Positions 3,400-57,222 of a DNA stretch of 64,000 nucleotides are shown here, piece by piece. The stretch's first letter is position 1; every line of letters begins with the position of its first letter. The stretch spans positions 32,001 to 96,000 of the forward strand of contig CAVSZB010000005.1 of assembly GCA_963732385.1 (NCBI GenBank), written 5' to 3'. The notes beneath the pieces are model-generated. The model was not told where the DNA came from. It did not search any database and saw only the letters and a program-made list of their open reading frames with translations. The position numbers and the translations under genes were made by a program. The stretch is from an uncultured bacterium (GTDB taxonomy: Bacteria > Krumholzibacteriota > Krumholzibacteriia > LZORAL124-64-63).

Positions 3400-6300
3400 C
3401 TACTGCCCCATATTGGCCGGCAGCCTGAACTGCGCGAAGAAGCCGGGGGCGAACGGGTTGTCGCGGGAGCGCGGCTGCAGGTCGTAGCTGGCCGGCTGGC
3501 TGTGGCCGCTGCCGTCCTCGAGCGCCCACTCCAGCCGGTAGAGGCCGCCGTCCTGGGGCGTGACCGTGGCCGCATCCAGCAGGCGGAAGAGGGACCACAC
3601 CCCTTCCTGTGCGTTCTCGGGCTCCGAACCGTCGCTCAGGTGCAGGGCGATGCGGGCCGCCTGCACGCCCCCCAGGTCCGGCCACTGGTACGGCCACCAC
3701 TTGCGCCCGCCGCTGCCGCTGGAGTACTCGAGCGAGGCGCTGTTGCCGATCTTGAGGCTCGAGTACTGGGCCGGCGGCGTGACCTGGCGCGGCCGGATGT
3801 CGAAGGCGAGCCGCGGTTCGTCGGCGTTCTCGAGGCCGAAGGCGCGGCGGATCGCCGCCGCCGCGTCGAGGGCCAGCTTCAACTCGGCGCCGAGTCCGGC
3901 GTCCCCGCCGCCCGCGCCGCCGCTGCCCGACGCCGCGTACTGGGGCAGTTCGCGGTCCACGAACGTCTTGAGCGTCCCCTTGACCCCGCCGAAGAAGCGC
4001 CCGAACTCGTCGACCGTCACGTCGACCCGGCTCGTGCGGTCGAAGGGATACTTCGACGCCAGCGACCGGTACGGCTCGAGGACCTGCCGCTGCCACGATT
4101 CGTCGAGCCGGCTGAACGACTCGCCCCGGCAGGCCCGCAGGGCGATCTGCGCCGGGCCGCGCAGGTACGCCCGGAGCGCCTCGTTGCTGGCCGTCTCGCC
4201 CCGGCGCGACGACCCGCAGAACCGGTTGGCGATCCCCTGCAGGTGCCCGAAGACGTGGTCCTCGCTCTCGGGCTTCTGGTCGATCTCGCGCGTCATCTCG
4301 AGCGCCCGCCGCCCGGTGTCGCCGGCCCCGCGCAGCTCGGCGAGCTTGGCCGCCAGCTTGGTGAACATTTCGCGGTAGTCGCCCGCCCGGCTCCCCTCCG
4401 GTCCGACGTCGCCCGCCTTCTTCACGAAGGCGCGCAGCGTGGCGAAAGCGGCGTCGATGTCGAGCAGACGGGAGTACGTGACGCGGTCGTCGCCCTTGAG
4501 CTGGCTGTCGAAGTAGACGTTGCGTTCGACCTCCTGCAGCAGGCGGTAGAACGGCGAATCGTCCCGCGCCAGATCCTCGAGGCGGTCGACCGTCTCCATG
4601 AGACCGCCCTGGCGCGACACGGCCACGGCGCTCAGGAAACGGTTCCAGCGCTCGACGTACTCGCGCGCGTACCAGGAGAGGAAACTGGACGGATCGGCAG
4701 CATCGCGTCCGGCTCCCCGCAGGTCCGCCATCAGCCAGGCCGGCAGCGGCTGGTTGCCCGTCCTGGCCAGCGAGGCCCGGATCCGCTCCCAGCCGCCGAG
4801 GGTGAAAGCCCCCTCCACCCGCGGTCCCTCCGACGCACCGTCGGCCGCGACCAGCAGCAGCGGCGCCCCCGGCACCGAGGCCAGCGTGAACGGGCCGGCC
4901 TCGTGACTGGCGGCATCGATCAACGCCGAGAACAGCCGGTCCTCGCGCGACGACGCCTCCCAGAGACCCCGGAGGCGATAGGCCAGGTCGCTCGACGGCG
5001 CCGTGCGCCAGGCCGCCAGATCCTCCTTGTGGGTCCAGGTGTAGGCGACGTGCTGCTGGATCAGCGTCAGCAGTTCGCCGCCCTCCCCGCCGCCGCGGCC
5101 GGTCCACAGACGCCCGAGCTGGCCGGCCAGCAGCGGCGCCTCGCCGAGGGAGGGATCGCAAAGCATCCGGTAGGCGACATACGGCTCGTAGAAGGCGTCC
5201 CATGCTGACCGTGACTCCGGCGCGGCGAGCCGGCGTTCGAGCTCGTCGCGACTGGGCACCAGCAGCGCCCGCGCCAGACCGTCGACGTAGCGACGGCGGG
5301 CCTGCCGGTTGAGTTCGCGCCCCTGGTAGAGGCCGAGTCCGAGGCGGAAGCCGGCGCGCGCGTCGCGCGCGTCGAGCAGCTCCAGCTGCCGGCGCAACGG
5401 GTCGAGCTGCTGCAGCTGGACGCGCAGATCTCCGGGCGAGCGCGGCGTGACCGGATCGGCCCGGTAGTCGAGCGCCACGCGCTGCGTTTCGCGCAACAGC
5501 CGGCGATTGCCCACGAACGACGACAGCATCCAGACGCCGCACAGCAGCAGCCCCAGGCCGGCGGCGGCGGCGCCCAGCAGGTGCATCCTCCGGCCCCGCT
5601 GCGTCGCGCCGGCGGTGGGGCGGGCGATCGCGCGATCGGGGATGATCACGTTCAGGAACAGGTTCGCCAGGAAGCTCGGAGGGGTCTGGCCCGCGCCGGC
5701 GACGGGCCCGCCGCCGCCGCCGCTGGCGAAGTAGAGCCCGCGCAGCAGCGGGCCGTGCTCGAAGCTGCCGGTGGCGAACAGCCCCTTCACGCAGTGCCGC
5801 AGGCGGTCCCGCAGCGCGTGGAACTCCAGCGGGAAGAGGTAGATGCCGCCCAGCGGCTCCGGGCGCAGCTCGCGCACGAGCCGCGGCATCCGCCGCTTCA
5901 GGAGAGTGTGGTACAGGAGCTGGAACTCCTGGTCGAACAGCTTTTCCGGCGTGGTCTGCGCCATCAGGGCGCCGCTGAGCGTCGCGCCCCAGATCTGGTC
6001 GCGCGCCGCCCCCGACAGATCGCCGAAGAACTCCCCGAAGCCGCGGATCAGGTCGATCTTCGTCACCACGACATAGACGGGGAAGACCAGGCGCAGGTCG
6101 CGGCTGAGGTCGTCGAGGCGCCGGCGCAACAGCTGGATCTGCGCCTCCAGCCGCGCGCCGTGGCCCTGGCTGAGCTCCTCGGCGGAGATCGTCACGACGA
6201 CGCCGTTGAGGGCCGGCTGGCGAATCTTGCGGAGCTGTTCGAGAAAGGCGCTCCAGTCCCGCTCCGTGGCCTTGTCCTGCGCGGGATCGGCGAAGCGGTG

Positions 6301-6846
6301 ATCCGCCTCCAGCACGACGGCCTGGTTCGTGAACCACCACTCGCAGTGGCGCGAGCTGCCGATCGCCTTCATGTCGCCCGCCTGCCGACCCGGCACGCGC
6401 AGGCCGGAATGGCGCACGAGCGTGCTCTTGCCCGCGCCGTCGGCGCCCAGCACCATGATCCAGGGCAGGGCATGCAGGGCCGCGCCGCCGGCCACGCCGC
6501 CGGCCACGGAGCTCCGCTTCAGCGCGGCGAGCGCCGCCAGCAGTTCCTGGCGGGCCGCCTCGCGCGAACGCTTCTGGTCGTCGCCGGCGTCGGCCACGCT
6601 GGCGTCCGCCTCGCGGATCAGCGACACCTCGACCTGCTCGGACTGCTTCCGCCGGCGCAGGATCAGCACGAGCTCCACCGCCAGCGCCACGACCACGATC
6701 CCGATGATGAGATAGAGGCGCAGATGGCCGGTGATGCCGAAGCGGCCGCCCAGGCGCAGCAGCAGCGCCACCAGCGCCGCCGCCACGAGCAGGACCACGC
6801 TCTGCGGGTGGAACAGGATCTTGAAGATCTTGGCGATGATGTTCAT
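3400..6846 (-). CDS. tssM: T6SS membrane complex subunit TssM (IcmF)
   Basis: N-terminal TM helices; LPWIMVLGADGAGKSTL Walker A; CEWWFTNQAVVLE; LNGVVV; FPVYVVVTKIDLIRGF; LLRGLYFAS; C-terminal YPF and W-LFRLLD; follows tssL. Confidence 0.95.
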   Translation of the reverse strand: MNIIAKIFKILFHPQSVVLLVAAALVALLLRLGGRFGITGHLRLYLIIGIVVVALAVELVLILRRRKQSEQVEVSLIREADASVADAGDDQKRSREAARQELLAALAALKRSSVAGGVAGGAALHALPWIMVLGADGAGKSTLVRHSGLRVPGRQAGDMKAIGSSRHCEWWFTNQAVVLEADHRFADPAQDKATERDWSAFLEQLRKIRQPALNGVVVTISAEELSQGHGARLEAQIQLLRRRLDDLSRDLRLVFPVYVVVTKIDLIRGFGEFFGDLSGAARDQIWGATLSGALMAQTTPEKLFDQEFQLLYHTLLKRRMPRLVRELRPEPLGGIYLFPLEFHALRDRLRHCVKGLFATGSFEHGPLLRGLYFASGGGGGPVAGAGQTPPSFLANLFLNVIIPDRAIARPTAGATQRGRRMHLLGAAAAGLGLLLCGVWMLSSFVGNRRLLRETQRVALDYRADPVTPRSPGDLRVQLQQLDPLRRQLELLDARDARAGFRLGLGLYQGRELNRQARRRYVDGLARALLVPSRDELERRLAAPESRSAWDAFYEPYVAYRMLCDPSLGEAPLLAGQLGRLWTGRGGGEGGELLTLIQQHVAYTWTHKEDLAAWRTAPSSDLAYRLRGLWEASSREDRLFSALIDAASHEAGPFTLASVPGAPLLLVAADGASEGPRVEGAFTLGGWERIRASLARTGNQPLPAWLMADLRGAGRDAADPSSFLSWYAREYVERWNRFLSAVAVSRQGGLMETVDRLEDLARDDSPFYRLLQEVERNVYFDSQLKGDDRVTYSRLLDIDAAFATLRAFVKKAGDVGPEGSRAGDYREMFTKLAAKLAELRGAGDTGRRALEMTREIDQKPESEDHVFGHLQGIANRFCGSSRRGETASNEALRAYLRGPAQIALRACRGESFSRLDESWQRQVLEPYRSLASKYPFDRTSRVDVTVDEFGRFFGGVKGTLKTFVDRELPQYAASGSGGAGGGDAGLGAELKLALDAAAAIRRAFGLENADEPRLAFDIRPRQVTPPAQYSSLKIGNSASLEYSSGSGGRKWWPYQWPDLGGVQAARIALHLSDGSEPENAQEGVWSLFRLLDAATVTPQDGGLYRLEWALEDGSGHSQPASYDLQPRSRDNPFAPGFFAQFRLPANMGQ

Positions 6847-6916
6847 GGCCCTCCGCCACGCCCCGGGACGTCCGCTGCGACCGCGCGGCGCCGCCTGCGC
6901 GCCGCGTCGCGCCCTC

Positions 6917-7600
6917 TCAGCGCAGCAGCGCGAGCGCCTTGTGCGCCGCGCCGCCGATCATCAGGCGCAGGATCACGTACAGGACCAGCAGCCCGCCCGC
7001 GCCGCCGGCCACCGCCCACCAGAGCGGGAAGCCGCCCGCTGCGCCCCCCGCCGGGTTGTCGCGTCGCTTGCCGTTGGGCGCGAGCCTGATCTCCCGCCGG
7101 TCGCGCGGGTCGTAGCCCAGCTCGCGGCGGATCTCGTCGACCAGCGGCCGCAACTGCTCGCGCCCCGCCACCCGGTACTGCCCCTCGAAGCCGAGCGTCA
7201 GGCAGAGGTGGTAGATCTCGAGCAGGTCGTGCTTCGCGTCGCCGCCGCGGCGCACCTCGGCGAGGTTCGTGAAGAAGCGCGTGCCGGCGAGCCTGTCGCC
7301 GAACAGCTGATGCTGCAGCGGATTGGCGCGCCACAGTTCGCGGTGGTCCCAGTTCGAGCCGAGGATCGTCTCGTCGATGAAGGCCACCAGCGGGTACTTC
7401 ACGGCCTCGATGTCGTCGCGCCCGAAACCGGCTTCGAGCCCCTCGCGCTCGAGGCCGGCCAGGTGGCTCCTGATGCTCTGGCGCAGCGCATCCTCGCTGC
7501 CGTAGTTGCTGCTGTCGCGCAAAGAGAGGATGACGCCGAACAAACCGGTGGCGAGGTCCTGCAGACTGCGCCGCGGTCGGACCTGCTGCGCCCGTTCCAT
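6917..7600 (-). CDS. tssL: T6SS membrane protein TssL (DotU family), without an OmpA-like C-terminal extension
   Basis: YPLVAFIDETIL...W...PLQHQLFG...GTRFF...LEIYHLCLTLGFEGQY; C-terminal TM helix; start refined to ATG at 7600. Confidence 0.93.
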   Translation of the reverse strand: MERAQQVRPRRSLQDLATGLFGVILSLRDSSNYGSEDALRQSIRSHLAGLEREGLEAGFGRDDIEAVKYPLVAFIDETILGSNWDHRELWRANPLQHQLFGDRLAGTRFFTNLAEVRRGGDAKHDLLEIYHLCLTLGFEGQYRVAGREQLRPLVDEIRRELGYDPRDRREIRLAPNGKRRDNPAGGAAGGFPLWWAVAGGAGGLLVLYVILRLMIGGAAHKALALLR

Positions 7601-7622
7601 GCCGCCACCCCCCTGGCTTCTC

Positions 7623-8978
7623 TTACTGCATGACGACGAGTTCGTAGGTGAGGCCGCACAGGTCGTGGCTGCCGGTGTAGATGGCCAGCGAGCGCCCCTC
7701 CACGATCGTGTCCCAGATCTCGCCCCGGGACTCGAGCTTGAAGTACGTGCGTCCAACCTTCAGCGGGAAATTCCGCGGCGGCACCGGCACGTGGACCGGC
7801 ACCACGCCGGGCGTGGCGGTCCGCACCAGGAAGTCGATGTTGTGCGGGCTGCCGACGATCACCTGCACCGGGACCTCGTCGCGGACACGCGCCTCCGACA
7901 GTTCGCCGCTCACGCCCAGGAACCACTGGACCGACGGCTCGAACAGACGCTCGTCGGCGCAGGTGCCCACGAGCACCCACTCGTCGCGCGGGGCGAGCGG
8001 GATGGCGGTGACGAGCTGGGGAATGCCCTTCTCGAGCAGTTCGCGGATGGTCCGCTCCAGTTCGCCGAACACCGGGCCGAGGTTCTCGTGCTGGTAGGCC
8101 GGCAGTTCGCGGGGGCTCCGGTCGACCACGAACGTGCAGAGCGCGCCCGCCAGCTGCGCCAGCGTGAGGTACGCCGGCAGCGGGTGGCCGCGCGGATTGC
8201 GCTGGTGGTGCGCCAGCAGAGGGACGAACGAGTTCGCGGTGTGCAGCAGCCAGAAGTGACCCACGTCGGCGGTGCCGAAATCGACCAGCCCGCCCCCGCG
8301 CTGCCGCGTCCCCTCGCTCAGGTAGGCGCTCTTGGTCACCAGCGTCTCGAGCAGGAAGCGCATGATGCCGGGCAGCGGACCGGCTGCCGCGATCGTCAGG
8401 CTCGGCGGCGCATAGTCGCGCGCGAGGATGAACCGGCCGTCGCTGGCGCGTTCGATCTCGGCGATCTTCAGCACGACGTGACCGGCCAGGTTCTCGCCGC
8501 CGAAGGCGAGCTTCAGATTCAGGCGCGAAACGACGATCTCGACCTGCTTGCCGGGGTCGTTCTCGTCGATGACCCGCACCACATCGCCGAGCTGGCGCGT
8601 TTCCGCGGCGCCGGTGCGCTCGGGCAGGCGGCAGAGCGGCACGCCGGCCCGCTCCTCGGGCGTGGCCAGGAACACCTCGAACCGCGTCTGGTCGGGACCG
8701 AACGCCTCGTTGAGCGGCCGACTGGGCGGCAGCGGGTCGACGGCGGGCGCGCGCACGATGCCGCCGTCGGGCAGGACGGCGTCCACCTCCAGCAGGGTCA
8801 GGCGGCCGTTGCCCAGCGCCTCGGTATCGATCTGCAGCGAGCGGACGCCCCAGGCGAACGGGATCAGGGCGTCCTGCCGGAACTGGATCTCGCCGAGCAG
8901 GGCGCGATCCGCCTGCTGGAAATGCTGAGGGCCGAGAAACATGCCCTCCTGCCAGACGACGCGGTTGTGACGGCTCAT
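7623..8978 (-). CDS. tssK: T6SS baseplate subunit TssK
   Basis: VVWQEGMFLGPQHFQQADR...WGVRSLQID...VLPDG; Y-HENLGPVF. Confidence 0.96.
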   Translation of the reverse strand: MSRHNRVVWQEGMFLGPQHFQQADRALLGEIQFRQDALIPFAWGVRSLQIDTEALGNGRLTLLEVDAVLPDGGIVRAPAVDPLPPSRPLNEAFGPDQTRFEVFLATPEERAGVPLCRLPERTGAAETRQLGDVVRVIDENDPGKQVEIVVSRLNLKLAFGGENLAGHVVLKIAEIERASDGRFILARDYAPPSLTIAAAGPLPGIMRFLLETLVTKSAYLSEGTRQRGGGLVDFGTADVGHFWLLHTANSFVPLLAHHQRNPRGHPLPAYLTLAQLAGALCTFVVDRSPRELPAYQHENLGPVFGELERTIRELLEKGIPQLVTAIPLAPRDEWVLVGTCADERLFEPSVQWFLGVSGELSEARVRDEVPVQVIVGSPHNIDFLVRTATPGVVPVHVPVPPRNFPLKVGRTYFKLESRGEIWDTIVEGRSLAIYTGSHDLCGLTYELVVMQ

Positions 8979-9009
8979 GATCGCTGCGGCCCCTTCGTTG
9001 TCCGCCCGC

Positions 9010-9486
9010 TCACGACTTGTCCGCGGTCAGGCAGAGCTTCTCCAGGCGGATGGCGATCCGGGCGGAACCGCCCTCGAGCCTGACCACCTTTTTCCAGCAC
9101 CCCGAACGGTGATCGCAGAAATCCGCCACCACGCCGACGGCCGTCACCCCCTTGCCGCGCGCCAGCTCGAAGATCTGCGCCGGCTCGCCCGGCATGACGG
9201 TCAGCTCCCTGACCGACGCCACGGCCTCGCCCAATGCCCGGCCCCGGTCGTCCCAGAGCCGGTCGAAGGCCGCTTCGCCGAACGCCTCCGCGTCGCGCAG
9301 GCTGTAGATGCGCACGACCACGGCATGATCGGCCGGATCGTCGCACGAGTTCAGGCGGGCCGCCCCCACCACGCTGAAGGCATCCCTGGCGGCGCCGCCC
9401 AGCCCCAGCATGCTGCATCCGCTGACGCCCACGGCCAGGCCCAGGAGCGTCCCCAGCGCCAGCGCCCTACCGATTCTGACCGACAT
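9010..9486 (-). CDS. tssJ: T6SS outer-membrane lipoprotein TssJ
   Basis: Lipobox VSGC; LN...AVVVRIYSL...F...PGE...VGVVADF...WK; directly upstream of tssK. Confidence 0.88.
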   Translation of the reverse strand: MSVRIGRALALGTLLGLAVGVSGCSMLGLGGAARDAFSVVGAARLNSCDDPADHAVVVRIYSLRDAEAFGEAAFDRLWDDRGRALGEAVASVRELTVMPGEPAQIFELARGKGVTAVGVVADFCDHRSGCWKKVVRLEGGSARIAIRLEKLCLTADKS

Positions 9487-9567
9487 CTTCGACTCCTTCG
9501 TGCGCAGCCGCTGCGGGAAGGGCCGGCGCGCGGTCCGTATGACCGGCGCGGCCTCGCCGCGCCAGAC

Positions 9568-10221
9568 TCAGCGGCCTGCGATGCCGGGCGGTGGCGGGAA
9601 GCCCGGCAACGGTCCGGCCGGCGTCGTTTCGCCGTCGCCGCCGCCGCCACCGAGACTCATGGCCAGACCGCCGACCACGCCGACGATCAGCGCGATGCCC
9701 AGCGGCTTGGCGAAGAACGACTTGCCGCCCTTTCCGGTCTGCACCGGCGTCGGCTGCCAGGTCGGCTGCGGCGCGGGAGCGGGCGTCGCGGGCGACACGG
9801 TCGCCGGCGCCGACTCGCTGCGGCAGCCCGCCGCGGCCTGATCGAAGTCCACCTGCTCGTCCCTGGGCAGCACGTCGGCCTCCGGACGCCAGCCGGCGTC
9901 GATCCGGAGCGCCTCGCAGAACATGTCGCGCGCGATGCTGTGATTGCCCAGGTTCACCAGACAACGCGCCTTCAGCACGTAGGCGTCGCGCAGGGCCGCA
10001 CCTTCGAGCGTGCCGCCACTGATGAACTCGTTGCAGATGTCGAGCGCCTTCTGGAAGTCCGCGAAATCATACAGATCCTGGGCCTGAGCGAGTGCCGGAG
10101 TCCCGGCCGCGAGCGCGGCCCCGATCCAGAGCCCGCCCGGAGCCACGGTGGCCAGAAAGGCGATCAGGGTCGCCAGGCCCAGAACCCGAAAAGCGTTGTG
10201 GCGACGGTAATTGCCCATCAT
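9568..10221 (-). CDS. Exported TPR-like protein with a C-terminal membrane anchor and Pro-rich tail
   Basis: N-terminal hydrophobic signal; helical AQDLYDFADFQKALD...AYVLKARCLVNLG...ARDMFCEALRID; C-terminal TM then GGGGGD...PGFPPPP. Confidence 0.65.
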   Translation of the reverse strand: MMGNYRRHNAFRVLGLATLIAFLATVAPGGLWIGAALAAGTPALAQAQDLYDFADFQKALDICNEFISGGTLEGAALRDAYVLKARCLVNLGNHSIARDMFCEALRIDAGWRPEADVLPRDEQVDFDQAAAGCRSESAPATVSPATPAPAPQPTWQPTPVQTGKGGKSFFAKPLGIALIVGVVGGLAMSLGGGGGDGETTPAGPLPGFPPPPGIAGR

Positions 10222-10315
10222 CTCCGGTCCCCCCTCCTGATGACGATCTGCAGTCCGGAACGCAGCATCTGACAATCGCCCGCACGGCTCAAGGAAAATT
10301 TGGGCGGCGCAACGG

Positions 10316-12456
10316 TCAGGGCGCCGACAGTTCGAAGCGGATCCGGATCTCCTGGTTCTCGGCCAGCCTGACCTTCACCCGCCCCTCCCCCCCGCGCCGC
10401 GGCTGAAAGTCAGCGCGCCGCCATCGCCCGCGTTCTGGGCGCCGGTCACCACGTAGCCGGGGCAGCGCGCGCCGATCGTGTGCTCGCCCGCCTCCAGCTT
10501 CACCTGCAGGAAGGGGGTCTGCTGGCCGGTGTCGATCCCGTCGATCGTCACGAACGCGGCCGGGGTGGCGGCCACGCGCAGTGAGCCGGTCCGCTCGAGG
10601 AAGCGGTGGTGCCCCAGCGCGAGCGTCTCGCCGGCCGCGATCTGGAAAGCCGGCAGGTCGAGGCGCCCGTACGACGGTCGGTACCGCAAAGAGACGGCGT
10701 GACGCCCGGCGTTGGCGGCCATCACGGCGACCTTCGCCCCCTCCTTGACCAGCTTCCCGTCCAGATAGACGTCCGCGTACGGAGAGATCACCACCCGCGC
10801 GTAACCGCGGCCCGGCGTCGCCGCGACCGTGGCGGAAGCGGCAGGGGGGGCGGCCACCGGTCGTTGTTGCGCCGGCGCTGTCGTGGGCGCTGTCGTGGGC
10901 GCTGTCGTCGGCGCTGTGGTCGGCGCTGTGGTCGGCGGGGTCGACGCAGCCGGCGGCGGCGTCGACAGCGGCGCGTCGACCGGCGCTGCGGGCGCCGGCG
11001 TCGAAACCGCCACGGTGTCCGGCGTCACGCCCGTGCGCGCGAACCGCGGCACGGGAGAGAGCAGGCGGCCGCCGATCATGATCGCCGCGGCGGCCACGAC
11101 CACCAGCACGGCCGCGGCCGCCCAGCGCGAGCCGGGCGAGGCGAACCATGAGCGGAGGCTGCTGCCGGACCCGGCGCCGGCCGTGCGGCCGGCCTTCGGC
11201 GCCGCCGCCTTCGGTTCGGGCGGGCGCGCCCTGCCAGCGGTGCGGGAGGCGGGGGCTGCGGAGGCCTTGGGCATGACGAGCGTGCGGCCGGTGGCGTCCT
11301 CGTCGGCGCGGGCCGGGCGGGCGGCGACGGCGAGGCTCTGGCCCGATTCCTCCGCCCTGCGCTTCAGTTCGCTGATCGCCTCGCTGGCCTTGCTGTTCTG
11401 CGGGTCGAGCGAGAGGACGTAGTGGAACTCGCGGATCGCATCGCCGATGTTCTCGAGCCCCATGTTCTTGAAATGGAAGCCGGCGTTGAGGTGGGCCTTG
11501 ATGTTCTGGTGCCGCAGCTCCTCGGCGAACGCCATCGGCTCCTTGGCGAAACGGGCCAGGTAATCGCGGCGGTACTTGATCAGGGCGCCCGACCGGTCGA
11601 TGCTCTCCATGCACTCCTTGAGCGCCAGCAGCACCTGGTCCATGTTCTGGTAGCGCTTCGCCGGGTCCTTCGCGAGCATCTTCTCCATCAGGGACGAGAG
11701 CTCCGCGGTCAGCAGCGGGCAGGCTTCGCGGGTCAGCGGCGCCGGCGCGTCGTTGATGATCGACTCCTGCACGGATGTCGGCGTGTCCCCCTTGAACGGC
11801 TTCTCCCCGGACAGGAGCTGGTAGGCCATCACGCCGAGCGAGAAGATGTCCGTGCGATGGTCGAGGTCGTCCCGGCCCGCCGCCTGCTCCGGCGACATGT
11901 ACGACGGCGTGCCGACGACCATCCCCGGCAGCGTCAGGTTCTGGGCGGTCAGGCGCGCGAAGTCGCGGGTGTCGCGGGCGAGGCCGAAGTCGGCGATCTT
12001 GATCTCGCCGTCGTTGCTCAGCAGCACGTTGTTCGGCTTCATGTCGCGGTGGATGATGCCGGTCGTGTGGGCGGCCTTCAGGCCGTAGGCCACCTCTTCG
12101 AGGATCAGCAGCGCGATCTCGGCGGGCAGCGGCCGCGAGCGGCCGGCGGCCTTCTGGAAATCGGCGAACAGCTTCTGCAGATCGGGGCCTTCGATGTACT
12201 CCATGACGATGAAGTACATGTCGTCTTCGGAGCCGAAGTCGATCACGCGGGCGATGTTGTTGTTCTGCAGCGAGGAGGCGGCCCGCGCCTCACGCTCGAA
12301 GCGGGCGATGAAGCTTTCGTCTCCGGCCAGGCCGGGGTGCAGGACCTTGACGGCGACCGAATAGTGCAGCGTTCCGTGCAGTCCCCGGTAGACCGTGGAC
12401 ATGCCGCCGGAGCCGATCTTCTCCTTGATCTCGTAGCCGTGGAACGTCGCCCCCAC
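10316..12456 (-). CDS. Hanks-type Ser/Thr kinase 2 (kinase-TPR-TM-PEGA-like repeats); C-terminus frameshifted at a G7 run
   Basis: IGSGGMSTVY, VAVK, HRDMKPNN, DFG, GTPSYMSPEQ; TM; PEGA-like repeats. The ORF stops at 10375, but adding one G at 10387-10393 gives ...AGGEGRVKVRLAENQEIRIRFELSAP* ending at 10316, which parallels the paralog's C-terminus. Confidence 0.92.
10874..10937. repeat. 12-bp tandem repeat, about 5 copies, encoding a (PTTA)n linker
   Basis: GGCGCTGT(C/G)GT(G/C) repeated 5 times inside the extracytoplasmic linker of kinase 2. Confidence 0.9.
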
Positions 12457-12490
12457 GTCGCTCCCTCCCCCCTGTGCGGACGCCGTGCTG

Positions 12491-14875
12491 TCAGGTCCGC
12501 GGTTTCCGCTTCAACTGCAGGTCGATCTTCAACCGGTCCCCCTGCGCGATCGTCACGCGGAAGGAGGTGTACTTGCCGCCGGAGCTGAGCGGCGGGAGCT
12601 GTTTCTGGCTGCCGTCGGCGGCCACCTGCGACGCGGTCTGCACGGTGAAGTCGTCGCTGCGGACCGTCAGCGTATGCTCGCCTGGCTCGAGACGGCCCGT
12701 CCACGGCGTGTTGCCGACCCGCTCCTGATCGATGTCCAGCGGGACCGGATCGGTCGCCTCGATAGCCACCTCTCCGCCACTGAGCACCATCTCCAGCCGC
12801 ACGCCCAGGGTCTGCCCGCCGCTGATCCTCACCTTCTTCATGACCGGCGCGTAACCCGGCTTCTCGGCCCGCACCTCCCAGTTGTCCGCCGCGGTCAGTT
12901 CGGTGACCACCGGAGCGGTGCCGACCGGCCGCCACGGCTCCCCGGCCTGGCGCACCAGCACGGTGGCGCCGTCGGGCGTGACGCGCACGCGGATCCGGCC
13001 GCTGGAGCTCACCGCCGGCGCGGCCGCGGCCTCGCTCGGGGTCTCGGCGATCGTGGCCGGCGCCGGCACGGCAGCCGCGGTCCCGGGCGCGCCGGTGGCC
13101 GCGACAGCGGGCGTTTCGCCCTCTCCCTCCGGAACGAGCGCGCGCAGCTGTCCGCCCACGGAGGTCGTTTCACTCCCCGCCGCCGTCACGGCGAGCACCG
13201 TGTCCGCGTACCCCGCCAGCGACAGCCGGAACTCCCAGGCGCCGACCGCCAGGTCCGCCAGCACGCAGGCGGTCTGGCGACCGGTCGGGGTGAAATCGGC
13301 GGTGCCGGCCCGCCGCATCCAGACCTGCGCCCCTGCCGGCTCGCTGGCCACCTGTACGATCGCCGTGGCCGGCGGCGCGGTCGGGCCGCGCCGCGTGAGC
13401 AGGACCGCGGCCACCGCCACGATCACCACCGCTCCGAGCGCCATCGCCACCATGCCCCGTCGCCGGCGCAGCCCCTCCAGAATACCGGCCACGGGCGACG
13501 CGGCGGCGCGATCCGGCCGCGCCTTGCGCGGCTGACGCGGCTCCCGCGGCACACGCGGCGCACGCGGCGGCGGCGGCGCAGCCGCAGCCGGCTCCGGCGC
13601 GGGCGCCGCGACCGGCTCGGCGGCGCGCCGTGGCGGGCCGGCCGCCGGCATGACCATGGTGCGTCCCGACTCCACCGGGTCGGCGGCATCGACATCGTCG
13701 GGCTCGTGCGCGCCGAGCGGACCGGCGCCCGTGGGCGGGGGCGCGGCGCGCATCGTGACCCCTGAATCCTCGGCCCGCTTGCGCAGTTCGGCCAGGGCCT
13801 GCGAAGCCTTCGGGTTGCGCGGGTCGAGGCGCATGACGTGACGGAATTCGCGCAGCGCGTCGGACATGCTGGCCAGGCCGAGGTTCTTGAAGTGGAAGCC
13901 GAGCCGCAGGTGCGAGTTGATGGCCTGGTGGCGCAGATCATTGGCGGTGGCGGCCGGGTCCCGGGCGAAGCGCTGGAGCAGGTCGCGCCGCAGCTTCACC
14001 AGCCCGCCCGACGAGTCGATGCTGTCCATGCACTCCCGCAGCGCGTGCAGCACCTGGTCCATCGACTGGTACCGCTTGCCGGGATCCTTGGCCAGCATCT
14101 TGCTGACCATCTCCTCCATCTCGTTCGTCAGGAGCGGGCACGAGGTCTCGGCCAGCGGACGGGGCGAGGCGTTGATGATGCGCTCCTGCACCTCGGTCGG
14201 GCTGTCGCCCTGGAACGGCTTCTCGCCGGCGAGGAACTGGTAGGCCATGACGCCGAGCGAGAAGATGTCGCTGCGGTGATCGACGTCGTCCCGGCCGACC
14301 GCCTGCTCCGGCGACATGTACGAGGGGGTGCCGACGATCATGCCCGGGCGCGTCAGGTCGTCCGAGGCCATCCGCGCCTGGTCGCCCGTGTTGCGCGCGA
14401 GACCGAAGTCGGCCAGCTTCACCTCGCCGCGCCGGTCGATCAGGATGTTGCTCGGCTTGATGTCGCGGTGGACGACCCCCTCGGCATGCGCCTCGCGCAG
14501 CGCGTACGCCACCTCTTCGAGGATCAGCAGGGCGATCTCGGGCGGCAGCGGCTGGGCCGCGCCGCTCTCGGCGCGCAGCATCTCGAACACCTTGGCCAGG
14601 TCGGGCCCGTCGATGAACTCCATCACGATGAAGTAGCAGTCATCCTCGCTGCCGAAGTCGATGACCGAGGTGATATTGACGCTGCGCAGCGCCGAGGCCG
14701 CCTTGGCCTCCCGTTCGAAGCGCGCGATGAACTGCGTGTCGCCGGCGAGGCCGGGGTGGAGGATCTTGACCGCGACGGGATAGCCCAGCGTCGTGTGGAC
14801 CCCCTTGTAGACGGTCGACATCCCGCCCGCGCCGATCTTCTCGTGCACTTCGAAGCCGTGAAACGCTGTAGCCAC
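12491..14875 (-). CDS. Hanks-type Ser/Thr kinase 1 (kinase-TPR-TM-PEGA repeats)
   Basis: IGAGGMSTVY, HRDIKPSN, DFG, GTPSYMSPEQ; TM; VASEPAGAQV and VTPDGATV PEGA-like repeats; GTG start with GGAGG RBS. Confidence 0.94.
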   Translation of the reverse strand: MATAFHGFEVHEKIGAGGMSTVYKGVHTTLGYPVAVKILHPGLAGDTQFIARFEREAKAASALRSVNITSVIDFGSEDDCYFIVMEFIDGPDLAKVFEMLRAESGAAQPLPPEIALLILEEVAYALREAHAEGVVHRDIKPSNILIDRRGEVKLADFGLARNTGDQARMASDDLTRPGMIVGTPSYMSPEQAVGRDDVDHRSDIFSLGVMAYQFLAGEKPFQGDSPTEVQERIINASPRPLAETSCPLLTNEMEEMVSKMLAKDPGKRYQSMDQVLHALRECMDSIDSSGGLVKLRRDLLQRFARDPAATANDLRHQAINSHLRLGFHFKNLGLASMSDALREFRHVMRLDPRNPKASQALAELRKRAEDSGVTMRAAPPPTGAGPLGAHEPDDVDAADPVESGRTMVMPAAGPPRRAAEPVAAPAPEPAAAAPPPPRAPRVPREPRQPRKARPDRAAASPVAGILEGLRRRRGMVAMALGAVVIVAVAAVLLTRRGPTAPPATAIVQVASEPAGAQVWMRRAGTADFTPTGRQTACVLADLAVGAWEFRLSLAGYADTVLAVTAAGSETTSVGGQLRALVPEGEGETPAVAATGAPGTAAAVPAPATIAETPSEAAAAPAVSSSGRIRVRVTPDGATVLVRQAGEPWRPVGTAPVVTELTAADNWEVRAEKPGYAPVMKKVRISGGQTLGVRLEMVLSGGEVAIEATDPVPLDIDQERVGNTPWTGRLEPGEHTLTVRSDDFTVQTASQVAADGSQKQLPPLSSGGKYTSFRVTIAQGDRLKIDLQLKRKPRT

Positions 14876-14897
14876 GCCGCCTCCCTTTTCGTCCGGC

Positions 14898-15671
14898 TCA
14901 GGTCCGACTCTGCCGGGCCACCACGACCGTGATGTTGTCGGGGCCGCCCTCCTTGCGCGCCCGCTCCACGAGGAGCTGGCAGGCGCGCTGGGGCAGGTGC
15001 ATCGAGACGATGCGCAGGATTTCGGGGTCGTGAATCACTTTGATCAGGCCGTCCGAGCAGAGCACCAGCGTGGCCCCCTCGGCGAAGATGACCGGGTTGC
15101 CGATGTCCGGCTCCACGCCCTCCTCGTTGCCGAGCCAGCGCGTCAGGACGTTCGACAGGCTCTGCTTGTCGGGCGGCAGCGTCTGGCCCTGGCGCCGGTA
15201 CTCGCCGCCGAGCGAGTGGTCTTCGGTCAGCGGGAAGAGCTGCCCGTCGTGCGCGAGATAGGCGCGGCAGTCGCCGATGTGGCCGATCACCAGCTCCTGC
15301 CCGCGGACCACGGCGGCCGTGCAGGTCGTGGCCATGTTGGCGCGCAGCGGACTGGCGGCCGCATCGGCGAGGATGGCCCGGTTGGCCTCGAGCAGCGTCT
15401 CGTAGAGGGCCGCCCGCAGGTCGGTCGGCACGCCGGCGGCGAAGAAACGCTCGCCGAAGGTCTGCACCGCGATCCGGCTCGCCACCTCGCCCGCCGCGTT
15501 GCCGCCCACGCCGTCGGCCACGACGAGCAGCAGCGCCCCGGGCGCGGTGTCGCAGGTGAAGATGCCGACCGCGTCTTCGTTCTTCTCGCGCCGGCAGCCG
15601 ATGTCGCTGAGGCTGGCGTGCAGGAGTCGCAGGCCGGTGGCCGGTGACGTCGGCGGGCTGTCGTGGTTCAT
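14898..15671 (-). CDS. PP2C-family Ser/Thr phosphatase (PppA/Stp1-like)
   Basis: SDIGCRREKNED, VADGVGG, GEVAS, HIGDCRAY, LCSDGL, GGPDNITV; ATG overlaps the upstream stop (ATGA). Confidence 0.95.
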   Translation of the reverse strand: MNHDSPPTSPATGLRLLHASLSDIGCRREKNEDAVGIFTCDTAPGALLLVVADGVGGNAAGEVASRIAVQTFGERFFAAGVPTDLRAALYETLLEANRAILADAAASPLRANMATTCTAAVVRGQELVIGHIGDCRAYLAHDGQLFPLTEDHSLGGEYRRQGQTLPPDKQSLSNVLTRWLGNEEGVEPDIGNPVIFAEGATLVLCSDGLIKVIHDPEILRIVSMHLPQRACQLLVERARKEGGPDNITVVVARQSRT

Positions 15672-17041
15672 GAGCCTCCTCTGCGACCCGGGAGCGCGAG
15701 GCCCGCCGGACGCGTTGTCCTGCGATAGACGAGCCCGACCGCGCCGCCCAGGAGCACGCGATCGCCTTCGCCGATGGTGGCCGTCCGCACCGGCCGTTCG
15801 TTGACCTGCGTCCCGTTCGTCGAGCGCAGATCGGTGATGATGACCGCGCCCCGCCGCACCCGCAGCACCGCGTGCTGGCGGGAGACCCGCGGCTCCGCCA
15901 CGACGATCGTGTTGCCGGCCGCCGAGCCGATCGTGGCGCCCGAGCGCGGCAGGCGGTGCACGGTCTGGCGTCCGCCGGCCGTCACGACCAGTTCGCCGGC
16001 CGAGGCGAAGCGCAGCCGCGCCAGCACGACCGCCGCGACGATCAGCACCAGGGCCGCCAGCAGCAGCGCCGGCCAGCGGCCGATGCCGCGCTCGGCGAGC
16101 GCCCGGCGGGCGCGCAGCGTGCCGTCGGCCGCGAGCTCGCCGTCGGCGCGCGTCACGCGCAGCGTCACGTCGGCCGGCAGCCCCACGCCCGGCGCGGCAA
16201 ACCGCGCCGCCAGCGCGCCGTCGACGACGGCCACCAGCCGCCGCACCGCCATCCCGGCCTCGCCGGCGCCGGCGGTCAGCAGCCGGCCGCCGCTGCCGTC
16301 GGCCAGGCGCCGCAGCCGCGCCGCCTCGGCGCCCGCCGCGTCGGTATCGCCGAGCAGGACGACGTACACCGCCACCCGGGCCGAGTCGGCGGCCGCCAGG
16401 CAGCTCACCGACGAGTAGCGGCTGCCCTGCCCCTGCCGGCCGCTCGTCACCACGATGAGCGTCCGCCGCGCCGGCAGCTCCGGAAAGGCCAGCACGGCCA
16501 GCGCGTCCTTCACATTGTCCCACAACGGGACCGGCGTGTCGCCGGCGAGGTCGGCCGCGGCCGGCGGGCGGGCCGCTCCCGCGCCGCCGCCACCGCCCGG
16601 CGCCAGCCGCCGCAGCGCCCGCGGACGCGACCCCGTCGCATAGAGTCCGCGCCAGGCGTCGGGCGCGGCCTGCCCCGCGAACGCCGCCAGCGCCTCGCCG
16701 CAGGCCGCCACGGCGTCGGCGGGCAGGCCGCGCAGATCGGCCAGCACCGCCACCGCCGACGGCGCGCCGCCCGGAGCGGGGGCGAACGGCAGCAGCGTCG
16801 GCGCGCCCACCGGCCCGCCGCCCGCCGCGAGCGTCAGCGCCGCGGCCGGCACCGCCAGCGGCAGACCGCCGGCGTCGACCAGCGTGAACGGGAGCTGGTA
16901 CTGCCCGCCCGTCAGCGGCACGCCCGGCTCGAGCCGCAGCTCGGCCGCAACCCCCTGGGCCCGCGCGCCGCCCCCCGGCGCCAGCAGCGCAATCACGACG
17001 GCCGCCGCCCGCAGCGACCGGAATCCGCGGCGTGAAAGCAT
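15668..17041 (-). CDS. Membrane protein with an extracytoplasmic degenerate vWA-like domain, TM helix and cytoplasmic FHA domain
   Basis: Signal peptide; TPVPLWD...RRTLIVVTSG...VYVVLLG...LRRLADGSGG (vWA-like); TM; IGSAAGNTIV...VSRQHA...DLRSTNGTQVN (FHA). Confidence 0.8.
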   Translation of the reverse strand: MLSRRGFRSLRAAAVVIALLAPGGGARAQGVAAELRLEPGVPLTGGQYQLPFTLVDAGGLPLAVPAAALTLAAGGGPVGAPTLLPFAPAPGGAPSAVAVLADLRGLPADAVAACGEALAAFAGQAAPDAWRGLYATGSRPRALRRLAPGGGGGAGAARPPAAADLAGDTPVPLWDNVKDALAVLAFPELPARRTLIVVTSGRQGQGSRYSSVSCLAAADSARVAVYVVLLGDTDAAGAEAARLRRLADGSGGRLLTAGAGEAGMAVRRLVAVVDGALAARFAAPGVGLPADVTLRVTRADGELAADGTLRARRALAERGIGRWPALLLAALVLIVAAVVLARLRFASAGELVVTAGGRQTVHRLPRSGATIGSAAGNTIVVAEPRVSRQHAVLRVRRGAVIITDLRSTNGTQVNERPVRTATIGEGDRVLLGGAVGLVYRRTTRPAGLALPGRRGGS

Positions 17042-17140
17042 GTCCGCGCCGCCCCTCCCCACGGTACGACCAGGTGCGCCGGCGGGAGAATCCCGACCCG
17101 CGTGGCGGAGTCTAAGGCGCGGCGGCGGGCATCGCAATCG

Positions 17141-18934
17141 CTAGTCGACCGGCAGATCGAACTGCTGTGGGCAGCGCATCACCACGGCCGCGGCCAGGAA
17201 GCGCGACACGTACTCCCGCGTCTCCTGCGGCAGACACGGCGCGTCCTTGCGCACGAGGTCCCAGAACTTCCAGCGCGACCACCAGTCGATGTTCATGCGC
17301 CGCAGGCAGGCGCGCAGCCCGTTGTCGCCCTTGTTGTAGGCGGCCACCGCGCACATGCAGTCGTTGGAACCGTAGGCGATCATCAGGTCCTGCAGGTACT
17401 GGCAGGCCGCGGTCGTGGCCCGCACCGGGTCCTTGCGCTCGTCGACGGTGTCGTCGACCCGCAGGCCGTAGTCGCGGGCGGTGCCGCGCATGAGCTGCCA
17501 CATCCCCATCGCCCCGGCCGGACTCTCGATCTCGGCCTGGTAGCCGCTCTCGATGAACGGAAGGTAGCAGAAGGCCTGCGGGATCCCCTGCGCCTCGAGC
17601 TGCGAGCGCAGCATGTCCAGGTGCGGCCGCGCCCGGCGGAGCGTGCGCAGGGTGTAGTCGCGCCGGTCGACCGTCCACATCCGCACGGCGCCTTCCACCT
17701 CCGCCACCATCGTGCCCGGCAGCGCGTCCAGCCGCGTGTCGACCCCGAACTGGGCGAAGATCCGCGACAGCTCCTCTTCCAGGCTGAAGGCCGGCGGCGG
17801 CGGGACGGCCGGCGCCGTCTCCTCGGCCGCGGTCACCTCGGGTTCCGGCGGCGGAGGCGGCGGCGGCCGCCGCCCCTCGCGCAGCTCCTGCAGCAGCGCG
17901 AACGGATCGCGGTCCCGCAGCCGATCCCGGTCGATCCGCTTGGCGGTCTCGCGCAGCGCCTCCCGCACTTCGTCGTCGCTCTGCCGGTCGGGCGGCAGCC
18001 GGTCGGCCGCGATCAGCGAGCGGATGGCGATCTCGAACTGCGCCTTGGCCACGGTGTCGTTGGGCGGCGAAGCGTCGTAGGCCACGAGCGCGTCGTCGAG
18101 GCTGCGCCGCGCCTGCTCGACGTACATGTCTTTCGTCCAGAGCCGCTCCACCCGCTCGCCCGCCGGCCGCAGCGACGGCAGCAGCAGCACCCCCACCAGC
18201 ACCAGCGCCGCGATCCCCAGCACCATCGCCCCATGCACCGAAGGCACGGGACACAACTGCACGGTGAAGACGACATCGGCGAACCCGACCCGGTCCCCCA
18301 CCCGCAGTACCCGCTCCTTGACCGCCTCCCCGTTGACGGAAGTGCCGTTCCTGCTCCCGGCATCGGTGAGCAGCAGCCGGTCCCCCCGCCGCTCGATCCG
18401 CGCATGCACCCCCGAGATCTGCGCCAGCGGCAGCAGCAGATCGGCCCCCTCGTCCCGCCCGATCACGCTCAGCTTGCGCGCCAGCAGCAGCGAGGCTCCG
18501 CCCGCCCGCGTATCGCGCGACACCAGCCGCAGACAGAGCAGCCCCGCCGGATCAGGCAGCCGCCGCCCCGCCCCCCGCGCCCGCACCGGCCGCTCGAGCG
18601 AGAACACGAACTCCCGCTCCGGCCCCAGCCGCAGCACCGCGCCGTCCCGCAACGGCGCCCGCCCCACCCGCTCCCCGTCGACAAAGGTCCCGTTGGCGCT
18701 CCCCTGGTCCTCGACGAACCAGACCGCCCCCTCCTGCACCAGCTGCGCATGCCGCCGACTGAGCGCCGCATCGTCGATACAGAGATCGCACCCCGCATCC
18801 CGCCCGATCAGCAGCCGCCCCCCGGCCGGCACGCACACGTCGGCCCCGCCCGCCCGCGGACGCACCCGCGCCCCGCAGGCCGGCCGCGCCCCCGCGCGCC
18901 CCCCCGCTCTAAGTCCGCCGGAAGTGTCAGCCAT
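17141..18934 (-). CDS. FHA-FHA-TM-lytic transglycosylase (MltD-like SLT) fusion
   Basis: Two FHA domains (IGRD...LSRRHA...GSANGT; IGRD...ISGVHA...GSRNGT); TM; SLT motifs PFIESGY, AGAMGMWQLM, DERKDP, AAYNKG, ETREYV. Confidence 0.92.
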   Translation of the reverse strand: MADTSGGLRAGGRAGARPACGARVRPRAGGADVCVPAGGRLLIGRDAGCDLCIDDAALSRRHAQLVQEGAVWFVEDQGSANGTFVDGERVGRAPLRDGAVLRLGPEREFVFSLERPVRARGAGRRLPDPAGLLCLRLVSRDTRAGGASLLLARKLSVIGRDEGADLLLPLAQISGVHARIERRGDRLLLTDAGSRNGTSVNGEAVKERVLRVGDRVGFADVVFTVQLCPVPSVHGAMVLGIAALVLVGVLLLPSLRPAGERVERLWTKDMYVEQARRSLDDALVAYDASPPNDTVAKAQFEIAIRSLIAADRLPPDRQSDDEVREALRETAKRIDRDRLRDRDPFALLQELREGRRPPPPPPPEPEVTAAEETAPAVPPPPAFSLEEELSRIFAQFGVDTRLDALPGTMVAEVEGAVRMWTVDRRDYTLRTLRRARPHLDMLRSQLEAQGIPQAFCYLPFIESGYQAEIESPAGAMGMWQLMRGTARDYGLRVDDTVDERKDPVRATTAACQYLQDLMIAYGSNDCMCAVAAYNKGDNGLRACLRRMNIDWWSRWKFWDLVRKDAPCLPQETREYVSRFLAAAVVMRCPQQFDLPVD

Positions 18935-18936
18935 GA

Positions 18937-19899
18937 TCACGTCGCCGCAGGCAGCGGGAAACACCGGAAGAGGAACCGCGTGCCCCCCATCTGCACCCGG
19001 TCACCATCGCGCAGCGCCTGCTCGGTAATCCGCACGTCGTTCACGAGCGTCCCGTTGGTGGAGTTGAGGTCCCGCAGCACGTACTGCCCCCCCCCGAACA
19101 CCACCTCCGCATGCCGACTGGAAAGGAACCGATCATCCCCGATGATGACATCGCACCCCGCCACCGACCCGAAGCGAAGGGTCCCGGCCGTCAACCGAAA
19201 GTCCCGCCCCCGCTGCGCCCCACTGACAGCCACGAGCCACGCCACCAACTCCTGCCGCCCCACCGGACTCATGAGGACAGCCGTCTTGTCGAGATCGTCC
19301 ACCGTCATCGCCCCCGGCGCCGCCACCGGCACCACAGGAGGAGGAGCAGCAGGAGGCGCAGGCGGCACATAGGCCGGAGGAGCCAGCAGGCGCAGCAGGA
19401 GCCGCCGGCGGAATGACCGGCCGCGCCCCGATCACCGTGATGTCATCCCCGCCCCCACCGGGTCCCCCCACCCCCGGCCCCGTCGGCACCCGACGGATCG
19501 GTTCGGAAACCGGCCGCGCCACCGGCGCATGCTCGATCCGCCGCACCGGCTCCGGCGCCCGCTGAAAAGGTTGAGGAGCAGGCGGCACCGCGCCAAGGGA
19601 GGAGGCGCAGCAGGAGCAGCCGGACAGCAGGAGCAGCCGGCCAAGTCGGCGGCCCCGCCGCCGGCGGCAGGAGACGTATAGGCAGGAGCCCCAGCCCCCG
19701 CATGAGGCGCCGGCGGCATCGGCTCCGCCGCCCGAGCCCCCCGCCCCGCCGCCGAACTCCCCCGCTCGTCATCTACAGGGATGAAATCCCCGCTAAGATC
19801 GCTCCCCCCCTCACAATAAGGACAGCTATCCCAAGACGGATCCAGGAGATGCCCGTTCGCACAATGCCGCACCTTGTTCTTCCGCTTCCCGAACAGCAT
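18937..19899 (-). CDS. Zn-ribbon, Pro-rich linker and FHA protein; broken across three reading frames
   Basis: N-terminal CANGH...CPYC; linker pieces in ORFs 19432-19929 and 19133-19588; C-terminal FHA in 18937-19368 (VAWLV...GRDFRL...LSSRHA...DLNSTNGT); GGAG RBS before ATG at 19899. Confidence 0.8.
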
Positions 19900-19965: not shown

Positions 19966-19996
19966 AGTCTACCAACGGGGGTGCGGGGATTGTCAA
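19966..19996 (-). promoter_or_regulatory. Candidate sigma70 promoter for the FHA/kinase/tssJKLM operon
   Basis: Minus strand: TTGACA (19996-19991), a 19-nt spacer, then extended -10 TGgTAGACT (19974-19966), about 65 nt upstream of the first ATG. The spacer is longer than the usual 17 nt. Confidence 0.5.
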
Positions 19997-34173: not shown

Positions 34174-34329
34174 CCAGCACAATCCAACGGCGGCGCCTGG
34201 ACCGTTCCGTCCTGCGCTTGATCCTTGGCGTGTCCGGCGTTAGGATGCCCGCTCCGTTCGGGGTGTGCCCCACCGCCCGTCGACGGCCGGCGCAACACGT
34301 TGACCGCCCTATCTGAAAAGGACCTCCCC

Positions 34330-34650: not shown

Positions 34651-34662
34651 GACGGGGGGGCC

Positions 34663-35493: not shown

Positions 35494-35518
35494 GCGACCG
35501 GCGGAGGGTCGCAGCGAC

Positions 35519-36643: not shown

Positions 36644-36692
36644 CGCGCCCGGCGTGCCGGCCGTCCGCCGTTTCGCGGCACGGAGTTGAGCG

Positions 36693-39782: not shown

Positions 39783-39792
39783 GCGGCGGACA

Positions 39793-40913: not shown

Positions 40914-40917
40914 AGCG

Positions 40918-43039: not shown

Positions 43040-43043
43040 CGCC

Positions 43044-57221: not shown

Positions 57222-57222
57222 G

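Follow-up and report, generated by a model that had tools for sequence, protein, structure and literature searches.

The threonine phosphorylation pathway of type VI secretion systems (T6SSs) is made up of PpkA/TagE, PppA/TagG, Fha/TagH, and TagF, with TagQRST in the H1 system of Pseudomonas aeruginosa and RtkS in Serratia as inputs, and T6SSs of subtype i are known in Myxococcota and Acidobacteriota. A locus related to this pathway is described here from an uncultured bacterium, in a 64,000-nucleotide stretch of DNA (GCA_963732385.1, contig CAVSZB010000005.1, positions 32,001 to 96,000), hereafter the window, within which all gene coordinates are given; its closest labelled relatives are Ca. 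Krumholzibacteriota, some records carrying other submitter labels. According to a 2026 review, subtype i is confined to Pseudomonadota and the mechanism of TagH is unclear (PMC13584744). In Agrobacterium, an Arg and a Ser in Fha's FHA domain bind phosphothreonine, and Fha binds the peptide D-L-P-pT-V-V-E-I on TssL; the double mutant abolishes secretion and the single mutants lower it (PMC3953482). Fha of Serratia is essential even without TagF (PMC6082577). A precedent for a second kinase is PknS, which is found beside PpkA at the T6SS locus of Xanthomonas citri and acts on transcription (PMC6653060), and, as exemplified by MltE and TagX, membrane-complex assembly requires a wall hydrolase in other bacteria (PMC13584744).

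In the window, eleven genes occupy the minus strand from 19899 down to 3400, with spacings ranging from a 4-nt overlap to 153 nt, in which a signalling cassette precedes tssJKLM. As in the threonine phosphorylation pathway, a membrane Hanks kinase, a PP2C phosphatase, and FHA proteins can be found beside tssJKLM, TagJ is present, and control is likely exerted at membrane-complex assembly (PMC13584744, PMC6082577). Unlike that pathway, the cassette comes without any TagH or TagF that could be found and displays three differently built FHA proteins, two of them in the membrane, a kinase with a PEGA ectodomain, an exported TPR protein, and a phospho-reader joined in one protein to a wall hydrolase. 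Not one of these differing features, the FHA-fused hydrolase included, appears in Table 1 of the review (PMC13584744). The cassette is a T6SS-linked variant of the threonine phosphorylation pathway, and no description of it was found in the T6SS-related literature searched, from which subscription journals were largely absent and which did not cover supplements. That it is a conserved T6SS accessory cassette is practically certain, and phospho-control of T6SS assembly by it is very likely; its most telling part is the reader-enzyme fusion, not the number of kinases.

The original prediction, made from this stretch alone, had proposed a co-oriented, tightly spaced run upstream of tssJ-K-L-M, and the eleven genes are indeed found in the order first described, with Pfam and NCBIfam profile matches, along the cassette, to FHA, to two FHA domains plus SLT, to FHA, to PP2C, to Pkinase with PEGA in two successive genes, and, weakly, to TPR. 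Its four FHA domains in three differently built proteins are likewise recovered by Pfam, two of these proteins having one predicted transmembrane (TM) helix each. Regarding the distinct control architecture it had put forward, the cassette is tied to the T6SS and built unlike PpkA-PppA-Fha; two kinases do not define it, and the FHA domains are not equivalent. Absent from that first account were the tail and baseplate genes in the same window and a wall hydrolase, apparently catalytically intact, on the reader protein.

This FHA-FHA-TM-SLT protein (17141..18934; 597 residues) harbors, by Pfam matches and a predicted structure (pLDDT 89), a pair of FHA sandwiches, a single TM helix, a helical domain of ~90 residues, and the SLT domain of an MltD-type lytic transglycosylase. 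Because there is a single TM segment, the FHA domains are predicted to be cytoplasmic and the SLT domain periplasmic. The Arg of both FHA domains (R45, R160) and the catalytic Glu (E462) are each present in 31/31 homologues, and the other signature residues of FHA1 and FHA2 (G-R, S-x-x-H, N-G) are conserved to a similar degree (Ser 30-31/31, His 29-31/31, Asn 30-31/31), so that only these two of the four FHA domains of the cassette keep the full phosphate-binding signature. The SLT fold comes with intact Glu-Ser, G-x-x-Q, and A-Y-N-x-G, the catalytic motifs of MltD-type enzymes. Both in sequence and in fold, the catalytic domain is best matched by P. aeruginosa MltD (PDB 8rhe/8rhf/8rhi), the best solved match (8rhe/8rhf) having an E-value of 1.5e-30 and a root-mean-square deviation (r.m.s.d.) of 2.4-3.7 Å over about 200 columns. 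Unlike MltD, the cassette enzyme has neither a lipoprotein anchor nor any match to LysM repeats, the protein ending after the SLT domain, and carries an N-terminal FHA-FHA-TM arrangement instead.

As with MltE, which is recruited by TssM in enteroaggregative Escherichia coli, or TagX from Acinetobacter, a peptidoglycan hydrolase would be tied here to membrane-complex assembly and, as with TagX, it is an inner-membrane protein encoded in the locus (PMC13584744). Setting it apart from both are an MltD-type fold, a TM anchor of its own, a helical domain specific to the clade, and a pair of cytoplasmic FHA domains, no phospho-reader being part of the description of MltE and TagX in the available text of the review (PMC13584744). 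That the transglycosylase opens the wall for TssJLM is reasonably probable. A predicted complex between residues 445-1012 of TssM and 258-597 of the transglycosylase scored 0.00 with controls not folded, and is evidence in neither direction. Homology between the periplasmic helical domain and its counterpart in the Myxococcota-type clade was considered and found weak (hhalign probability 22%, E 0.001). On contig C19 of genome G084 (L206:7295-9643), a Ser/Thr kinase is fused to this same helical plus SLT module (35% identity over 386 residues) whose catalytic Glu is replaced; as proof of coupling this fusion was set aside, being a single case in which the catalytic Glu is gone.

The soluble protein encoded just upstream (18937..19899) combines a Zn-ribbon, a Pro-rich linker, and an FHA domain (PF00498, E 2e-17), the zinc ribbon being absent or undetected in several relatives. 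In its otherwise variable, Pro-rich linker, at least two acidic(D)-x-x-T-x-hydrophobic motifs can be found in 14/15 relatives (the window copy and one short row left out), compared with at most 3/15 in 2000 shuffles, for a pattern that was set after the alignment had been viewed; the window copy has both motifs, in different frames of a shifted linker. The phosphate-binding Arg of its FHA domain is present in 1/15, with Ser and His largely kept. A similar motif (T-x-hydrophobic) occurs in the kinase linker in 14/14 anchored rows, out of 18 rows. The Zn-ribbon-FHA protein is likely a kinase substrate and scaffold. The acidic-x-x-T-x-hydrophobic motif and an FHA domain with conserved Arg and Ser are reminiscent of the Agrobacterium relay from PpkA through TssL phosphorylated on T14 to Fha (PMC3953482); unlike in Agrobacterium, where it is at the TssL N-terminus, the motif is carried here by the kinase linker and, twice, by a separate soluble scaffold. 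An Agrobacterium-style phosphosite on TssL was considered and dropped, no N-terminal Thr of TssL being conserved among the relatives. Nor do TssM, the transglycosylase, or the vWA-FHA protein show a conserved D-x-x-T-type motif, and the single one in TssL seems to sit in a core fold motif.

Downstream of the transglycosylase gene, a third FHA protein (15668..17041) has a signal peptide-like N-terminus, a vWA fold, a TM segment, and a C-terminal FHA domain. By sequence its vWA domain gives a weak match only (TIGR03436, E 2e-4), and it is the predicted model that upholds the earlier vWA assignment, matching vWA folds with Z-scores of 18.7 and 16.6 (r.m.s.d. 2.3 and 2.8 Å over 171-174 residues); PDB 5a8i and 5a8j are among the fold matches. 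The metal motif DxSxS is found in 0/17 at the aligned position, and the Arg of the FHA domain in 3/16, Ser and His being largely kept. The four FHA domains cannot be taken for equivalent phospho-readers, since two of them mostly lack the phosphate-binding Arg; those of the Zn-ribbon-FHA and vWA-FHA proteins are probably adaptors. ArnA from Sulfolobus has an N-terminal zinc finger. FHA and vWA proteins also go together in ArnA (FHA) and ArnB (vWA), which regulate a surface machine and depend on phosphorylation in doing so (PMC6509490). Unlike these cytoplasmic archaeal proteins, which act on archaellum expression, the cassette vWA domain is predicted to be periplasmic, and the likeness is an analogy only.

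The phosphatase gene (14898..15671) encodes a PP2C-type Ser/Thr phosphatase, the counterpart of PppA (PF13672, E 1e-20; NF033484, 195 bits), in which the four metal-binding Asp positions are kept in 16-18/19 rows, the remainder being gaps except for one Pro. Kinase 1 (12491..14875) is assembled from a Hanks kinase domain, TPR-like helices, a linker, a TM segment, and PEGA repeats, and kinase 2 (10375..12456) has the same N-terminal build; both have intact VAVK, HRD, and loop motifs and one TM segment. Two receptor kinases had been regarded as a defining feature, and were considered as a conserved design, a view abandoned given that two copies occur in just 4/16 genomes, that kinase 1 belongs to a clade of three, and that four genomes have no cluster kinase. 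Kinase 1 appears as an extra copy (support 100/99 for its clade). Its ectodomain lacks one block that is present in single-copy relatives, and that of kinase 2, which retains this block, is missing the first two PEGA repeats; each window kinase is therefore without a different part of the full ectodomain of single-copy kinases. Because of these complementary losses, the clade of three, and the 4/16 count, the second kinase is, on the sequence comparison, a local lineage duplication with a split ectodomain rather than part of the design of the system, which may widen its inputs.

In the exported TPR protein (9568..10221; weak TPR match), two Cys are conserved and the C-terminal part has a hydrophobic segment. 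It accompanies the kinase, with which it makes up a movable pair (relocated together in genome G066), and is a candidate kinase activator. Its family has look-alike Atlas clusters, found most often in Krumholzibacteriota, Calditrichota, Zixibacteria, and Myxococcota; TssL-negative genomes also have weaker homologues.

Two cassette genes are interrupted or altered in the assembly. The Zn-ribbon-FHA gene is not a single open frame, its Pro-rich linker shifting frame with a stop near 19434, and is one open frame in the close relative L026; near the 3' end of the kinase 2 gene, one extra G in a G run relative to L026 probably frameshifts the last residues (the alternative frame stops at 10316). 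Both breaks are likely homopolymer assembly errors, to go by these comparisons. The public sequencing runs listed for this sequence are 13 DNA runs with small shares and none of RNA; reads from 4 of the 13 yielded short fragments from related strains and gave no answer on the frameshifts.

The remaining genes of the run are tssJ, a lipoprotein gene (9010..9486; TIGR03352 above cut-off), tssK (7623..8978; TIGR03353 above cut-off), a short form of tssL above the NCBIfam cut-off and without peptidoglycan-binding domain (6917..7600), and tssM (3400..6846; TIGR03348, 554 bits), with three TM segments by hydropathy. They belong to a complete, single-copy T6SS whose tail genes are in the same window, a minus-strand cluster (45842..58857) of tssA, B, C, hcp, tagJ, tssE, F, G, clpV, and vgrG, nine core genes by NCBIfam and tagJ by Pfam ImpE. 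All 13 core genes tssA-M score above NCBIfam cut-offs and PAAR is present, which places the system in subtype i; TssC, Hcp, TssF, and VgrG are each single copy in the genome (95.8% complete). In agreement with the earlier statement that no canonical Fha/TagH or TagF was recognizable, TagH/Fha (TIGR03354) was not found genome-wide, the best hit of 42 bits against a cut-off of 120 covering the FHA part only (the same model is above cut-off in E. coli), and TagF (PF09867) was not found in the organism's own genome (G000) or in G066, G272, and G477, the same model matching in G099 and G352. Among the cassette genes, no Pfam or NCBIfam match to TagQRST or RtkS was obtained, no genome-wide search having been made for them.

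With regard to distribution, all 208 genomes of the phylum were surveyed. TssL can be found in 21/208, and the FHA-FHA-TM-SLT gene (orthologue at E < 1e-100, next-best genome at 4e-44) and the vWA-TM-FHA gene in an identical set of 17/208, all 17 TssL-positive, with 0/187 among the TssL-negative ones. Four TssL genomes are without both genes. G099 and G129 have a different T6SS, whose TssK, 33-36% identical, falls outside the cassette clade and which has no FHA cassette beside tssKLM; G200 has its TssL on a 944-base contig; and G051 carries a reduced cassette, in which TssJKLM, scaffold, PP2C, kinase, and TPR protein are kept and the transglycosylase and vWA-FHA protein are missing. The G099/G129 type of T6SS (L011, L013, L020, L023), a second one within the same family, includes one additional TssB/TssC-like gene; in G099, tssM is followed by TagF. 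A kinase orthologue is present in 16 genomes, 15 of them TssL-positive, and in duplicate in 4. In G198 (no TssL found, 87% complete) a PP2C-kinase pair, and in G099 one kinase, have FlgD-Ig genes for neighbours and are set apart from T6SS genes.

Scanning 185,579 species genomes gave 89 matching loci, 80 of which were considered and which overlap the 208 genomes: in 20 the match extends past the SLT domain (6 of these being on contigs no longer than 4 kb), and 60 are SLT-only. Of the 14 long loci, tssJKL is present in 13 and tail genes in the 14th, and 0/60 SLT-only loci match any T6SS protein of the window. The possibility that homologous cassettes mostly occur without a T6SS does not apply to the true orthologues (17/17 with TssL, 13/14 long loci with tssJKL). 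The TssK proteins that go with the cassette group as one clade (SH-aLRT 98, quick tree). Tandem as well as divergent layouts of cassette and tssJKLM occur, the divergent one in 5/13 loci and in G051, adjacency thus surviving inversion. The gene order expected in relatives is therefore conserved in part: the stable core beside tssJ consists of Zn-ribbon-FHA, FHA-FHA-SLT, vWA-FHA, and PP2C, while the kinase and TPR genes are movable and the layout is sometimes divergent. In four genomes (L033, L044, L200, L201) no kinase lies between PP2C and tssJ, which abut.

As to transcription, a promoter-like element (TTGAC, 18-19 nt, TAGACT type; 19966..19996, minus strand) precedes the cassette and recurs in 10/14 anchored loci, 80-125 nt before the anchor, where a scan with 16-18 nt spacers missed it; its pattern, like that of the internal element, was written after the sequence had been viewed, and its background was not computed. 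The internal element (TTGAG, 17 nt spacer; 10264..10292, minus strand) lies before the TPR gene and tssJKLM, at -220 to -227 from the anchor, in 4/9 anchored loci, the window among these four and 6 further rows having no anchor, and has 2 matches in the whole window on both strands, its own site included. With regard to a transcript boundary between the kinases and tssJ, which the original prediction regarded as adverse, there is this promoter-like element between kinase 2 and the TPR-tssJ genes, and no terminator was found at the locus. Given the divergent layouts (5/13 loci and G051), one operon for cassette and tssJKLM does not appear to be required.

Beyond the phylum, FHA-TM-SLT proteins are common among the best 150 matches from 1.84 billion representatives, some labelled Eisenbacteria or Myxococcota, and Atlas clusters of the family are commonest in Bdellovibrionota, Acidobacteriota, and Pseudomonadota. 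In locus L105, from the Myxococcota-type clade, an FHA-SLT gene comes just after tssKLM, and in L190, from Acidobacteriota, the order is tssJKLM, FHA, FHA-FHA-SLT, PEGA kinase. In a sample of 301 genomes around an Acidobacteria-labelled record, the family can be found in 10/301, of which 3 have TssK, 1 of them adjacent, and 3 have a neighbouring kinase. Out of 80 metagenome loci, the fusion is in one frame in 14, 7 of these spanning at least 10 kb, with T6SS genes in 2/7 and none in 5/7. Because distant members are mostly without T6SS neighbours, and L105 and L190 are nevertheless linked, FHA-TM-SLT is a general module taken up by this T6SS clade and apparently by others.

Considering the gene content, the linkage to tssJKLM, the conserved catalytic and phosphate-binding residues, and the TagH and TagF that were not found, the best explanation is that the kinase marks the Zn-ribbon-FHA protein, the tandem FHA domains bind these marks, and the transglycosylase cuts the cell's own wall locally for TssJ-L-M, a proposal whose chances are put slightly on the favourable side of even. 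In the full sequence of events, the exported TPR protein, possibly together with the vWA protein, would activate the PEGA-ectodomain kinase at a site of contact or damage, in place of TagR or RtkS; the kinase would autophosphorylate its linker and phosphorylate the scaffold on both of its D-x-x-T-x-hydrophobic motifs; the tandem FHA domains would bind these marks two at a time, leading to clustering of the enzyme, whose periplasmic MltD-type domain would open peptidoglycan for TssM, the role of MltE and TagX elsewhere; and PP2C would reset the phospho-mark. We infer every arrow of this chain from activation to reset, which as a whole seems about evenly poised between right and wrong. More tentative, and a little below even, is the wider scheme without TagH and TagF in which contact-activated kinase, two-site scaffold, and tandem-FHA transglycosylase choose the drilling site, FHA-TM-SLT being a general phospho-switchable wall cutter that T6SS loci of several phyla would have recruited.

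Several observations weigh against this account. The clearest case against an essential role of the enzyme is G051, in which T6SS and kinase are kept without it, so that it may be dispensable, and a housekeeping MltD-like gene exists in 194/208 genomes. The four loci in which PP2C abuts tssJ, the scarcity of T6SS neighbours in the Acidobacteriota and metagenome samples, and the late choice of the Thr pattern point the same way. The Arg-less FHA domains may still bind phosphothreonine, because their Ser is kept and loss of the Arg alone merely lowered secretion in Agrobacterium, and the 17/17 linkage may reflect one acquisition, since the genomes are related to one another and their T6SSs belong to a single clade.

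Other explanations use the same parts differently. The enzyme could open the wall ungated, the FHA proteins jointly standing in for TagH and, as a scaffold dependent on phosphorylation, docking the baseplate on the cytoplasmic side: with TagH not found in the genome and Fha essential in Serratia even without TagF (PMC6082577), something should fill the role of Fha, and tssJ has its most stable neighbours in the three FHA genes. That the full phosphate-binding signature is borne by the enzyme only, and that TssM has no conserved D-x-x-T motif and TssL just the one placed, by inference, in its core fold, makes this explanation unlikely. The enzyme could also act after or upstream of assembly, repairing or remodelling the wall at firing sites or supplying a muropeptide damage signal to the kinase. 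Its absence from G051, the widespread housekeeping MltD-like genes, and the G084 fusion, where a helical-SLT module on a kinase has lost its Glu, suggesting a binding or sensing use of the module, would fit such a role, which is judged rather improbable in view of catalytic residues invariant in 31/31 and of T6SS loci elsewhere that encode or recruit an insertion hydrolase (PMC13584744).

Least probable, and quite doubtful, is the view of the cassette as a module for general envelope or contact signalling, which hitch-hikes with the T6SS without controlling its assembly, perhaps serving the FlgD-Ig surface protein encoded next to tssM. It would account for the distant FHA-TM-SLT genes mostly lacking T6SS neighbours, for the kinase genes of G198 and G099 away from T6SS genes and beside FlgD-Ig genes, and for an own promoter and divergent layouts; it is at odds with the 0/187 FHA-SLT and vWA-FHA orthologues in TssL-negative genomes, with an adjacency to tssJKLM that survives inversion and separation from the tail genes, and with the recurrence of the same pairing alongside distant TssK proteins in L105 and L190.

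The surface protein in question is a 616-residue exported protein with a FlgD-Ig/T9SS-like C-terminal domain, encoded on the plus strand (1441..3291) convergently with tssM, and turns up repeatedly next to the cassette. The N-terminal part of the protein occurs once in the genome and has homologues of 25-33% identity in 9/30 loci tested; in seven relatives homologues adjoin the cassette, and in L195 and L207 they lie next to orphan kinase or TPR genes. The gene at 556-1431 (plus strand) has a weak match to the N-terminus of a Bdellovibrio MAT fibre, and the pair is a possible surface partner of the signalling module.

Between the two T6SS halves, a low-GC stretch (about 56%; 20340-25769) contains GmrSD_N, RelA/SpoT-domain, and Schlafen/AlbA-HTH genes, the last of which interrupts a SIMPL gene (pieces 23550-23990 and 25827-26570). 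A probable effector/immunity region (33619-45841; PAAR, DUF2169, PLD-like, and peptidoglycan-binding-domain genes listed over 34225..45841) comprises PAAR and DUF2169 at 34225-36643, a PLD-like gene (1029 aa), a set of three peptidoglycan-binding-domain paralogues, and two genes that match no family. At 60642-63995 (minus strand), a large exported protein combines trypsin-like, fibronectin III, and FlgD-Ig domains, its C-terminal domain giving 74 BLAST segments in the genome. Elsewhere in the genome, contig C2 carries at about 35-43 kb (L204:5060-12961), near a TonB-dependent receptor, a second phospho-signalling cluster with a kinase, a PEGA x4/FGE-sulfatase protein, MotA/ExbB, an FHA protein, and a vWA protein.

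A full subtype-i T6SS with its own regulators is hereby documented in an uncultured phylum. The locus bears on the choice of the T6SS site, on how a large membrane complex crosses the wall, and on the role of phosphorylated Fha. It offers reader and wall enzyme on one polypeptide, with named residues (R45, R160, E462) and candidate phosphosites, which makes the link from phosphorylation to the wall testable with purified domains. If the proposal is true, a phosphothreonine signal would be wired directly to the wall-opening step of T6SS assembly.

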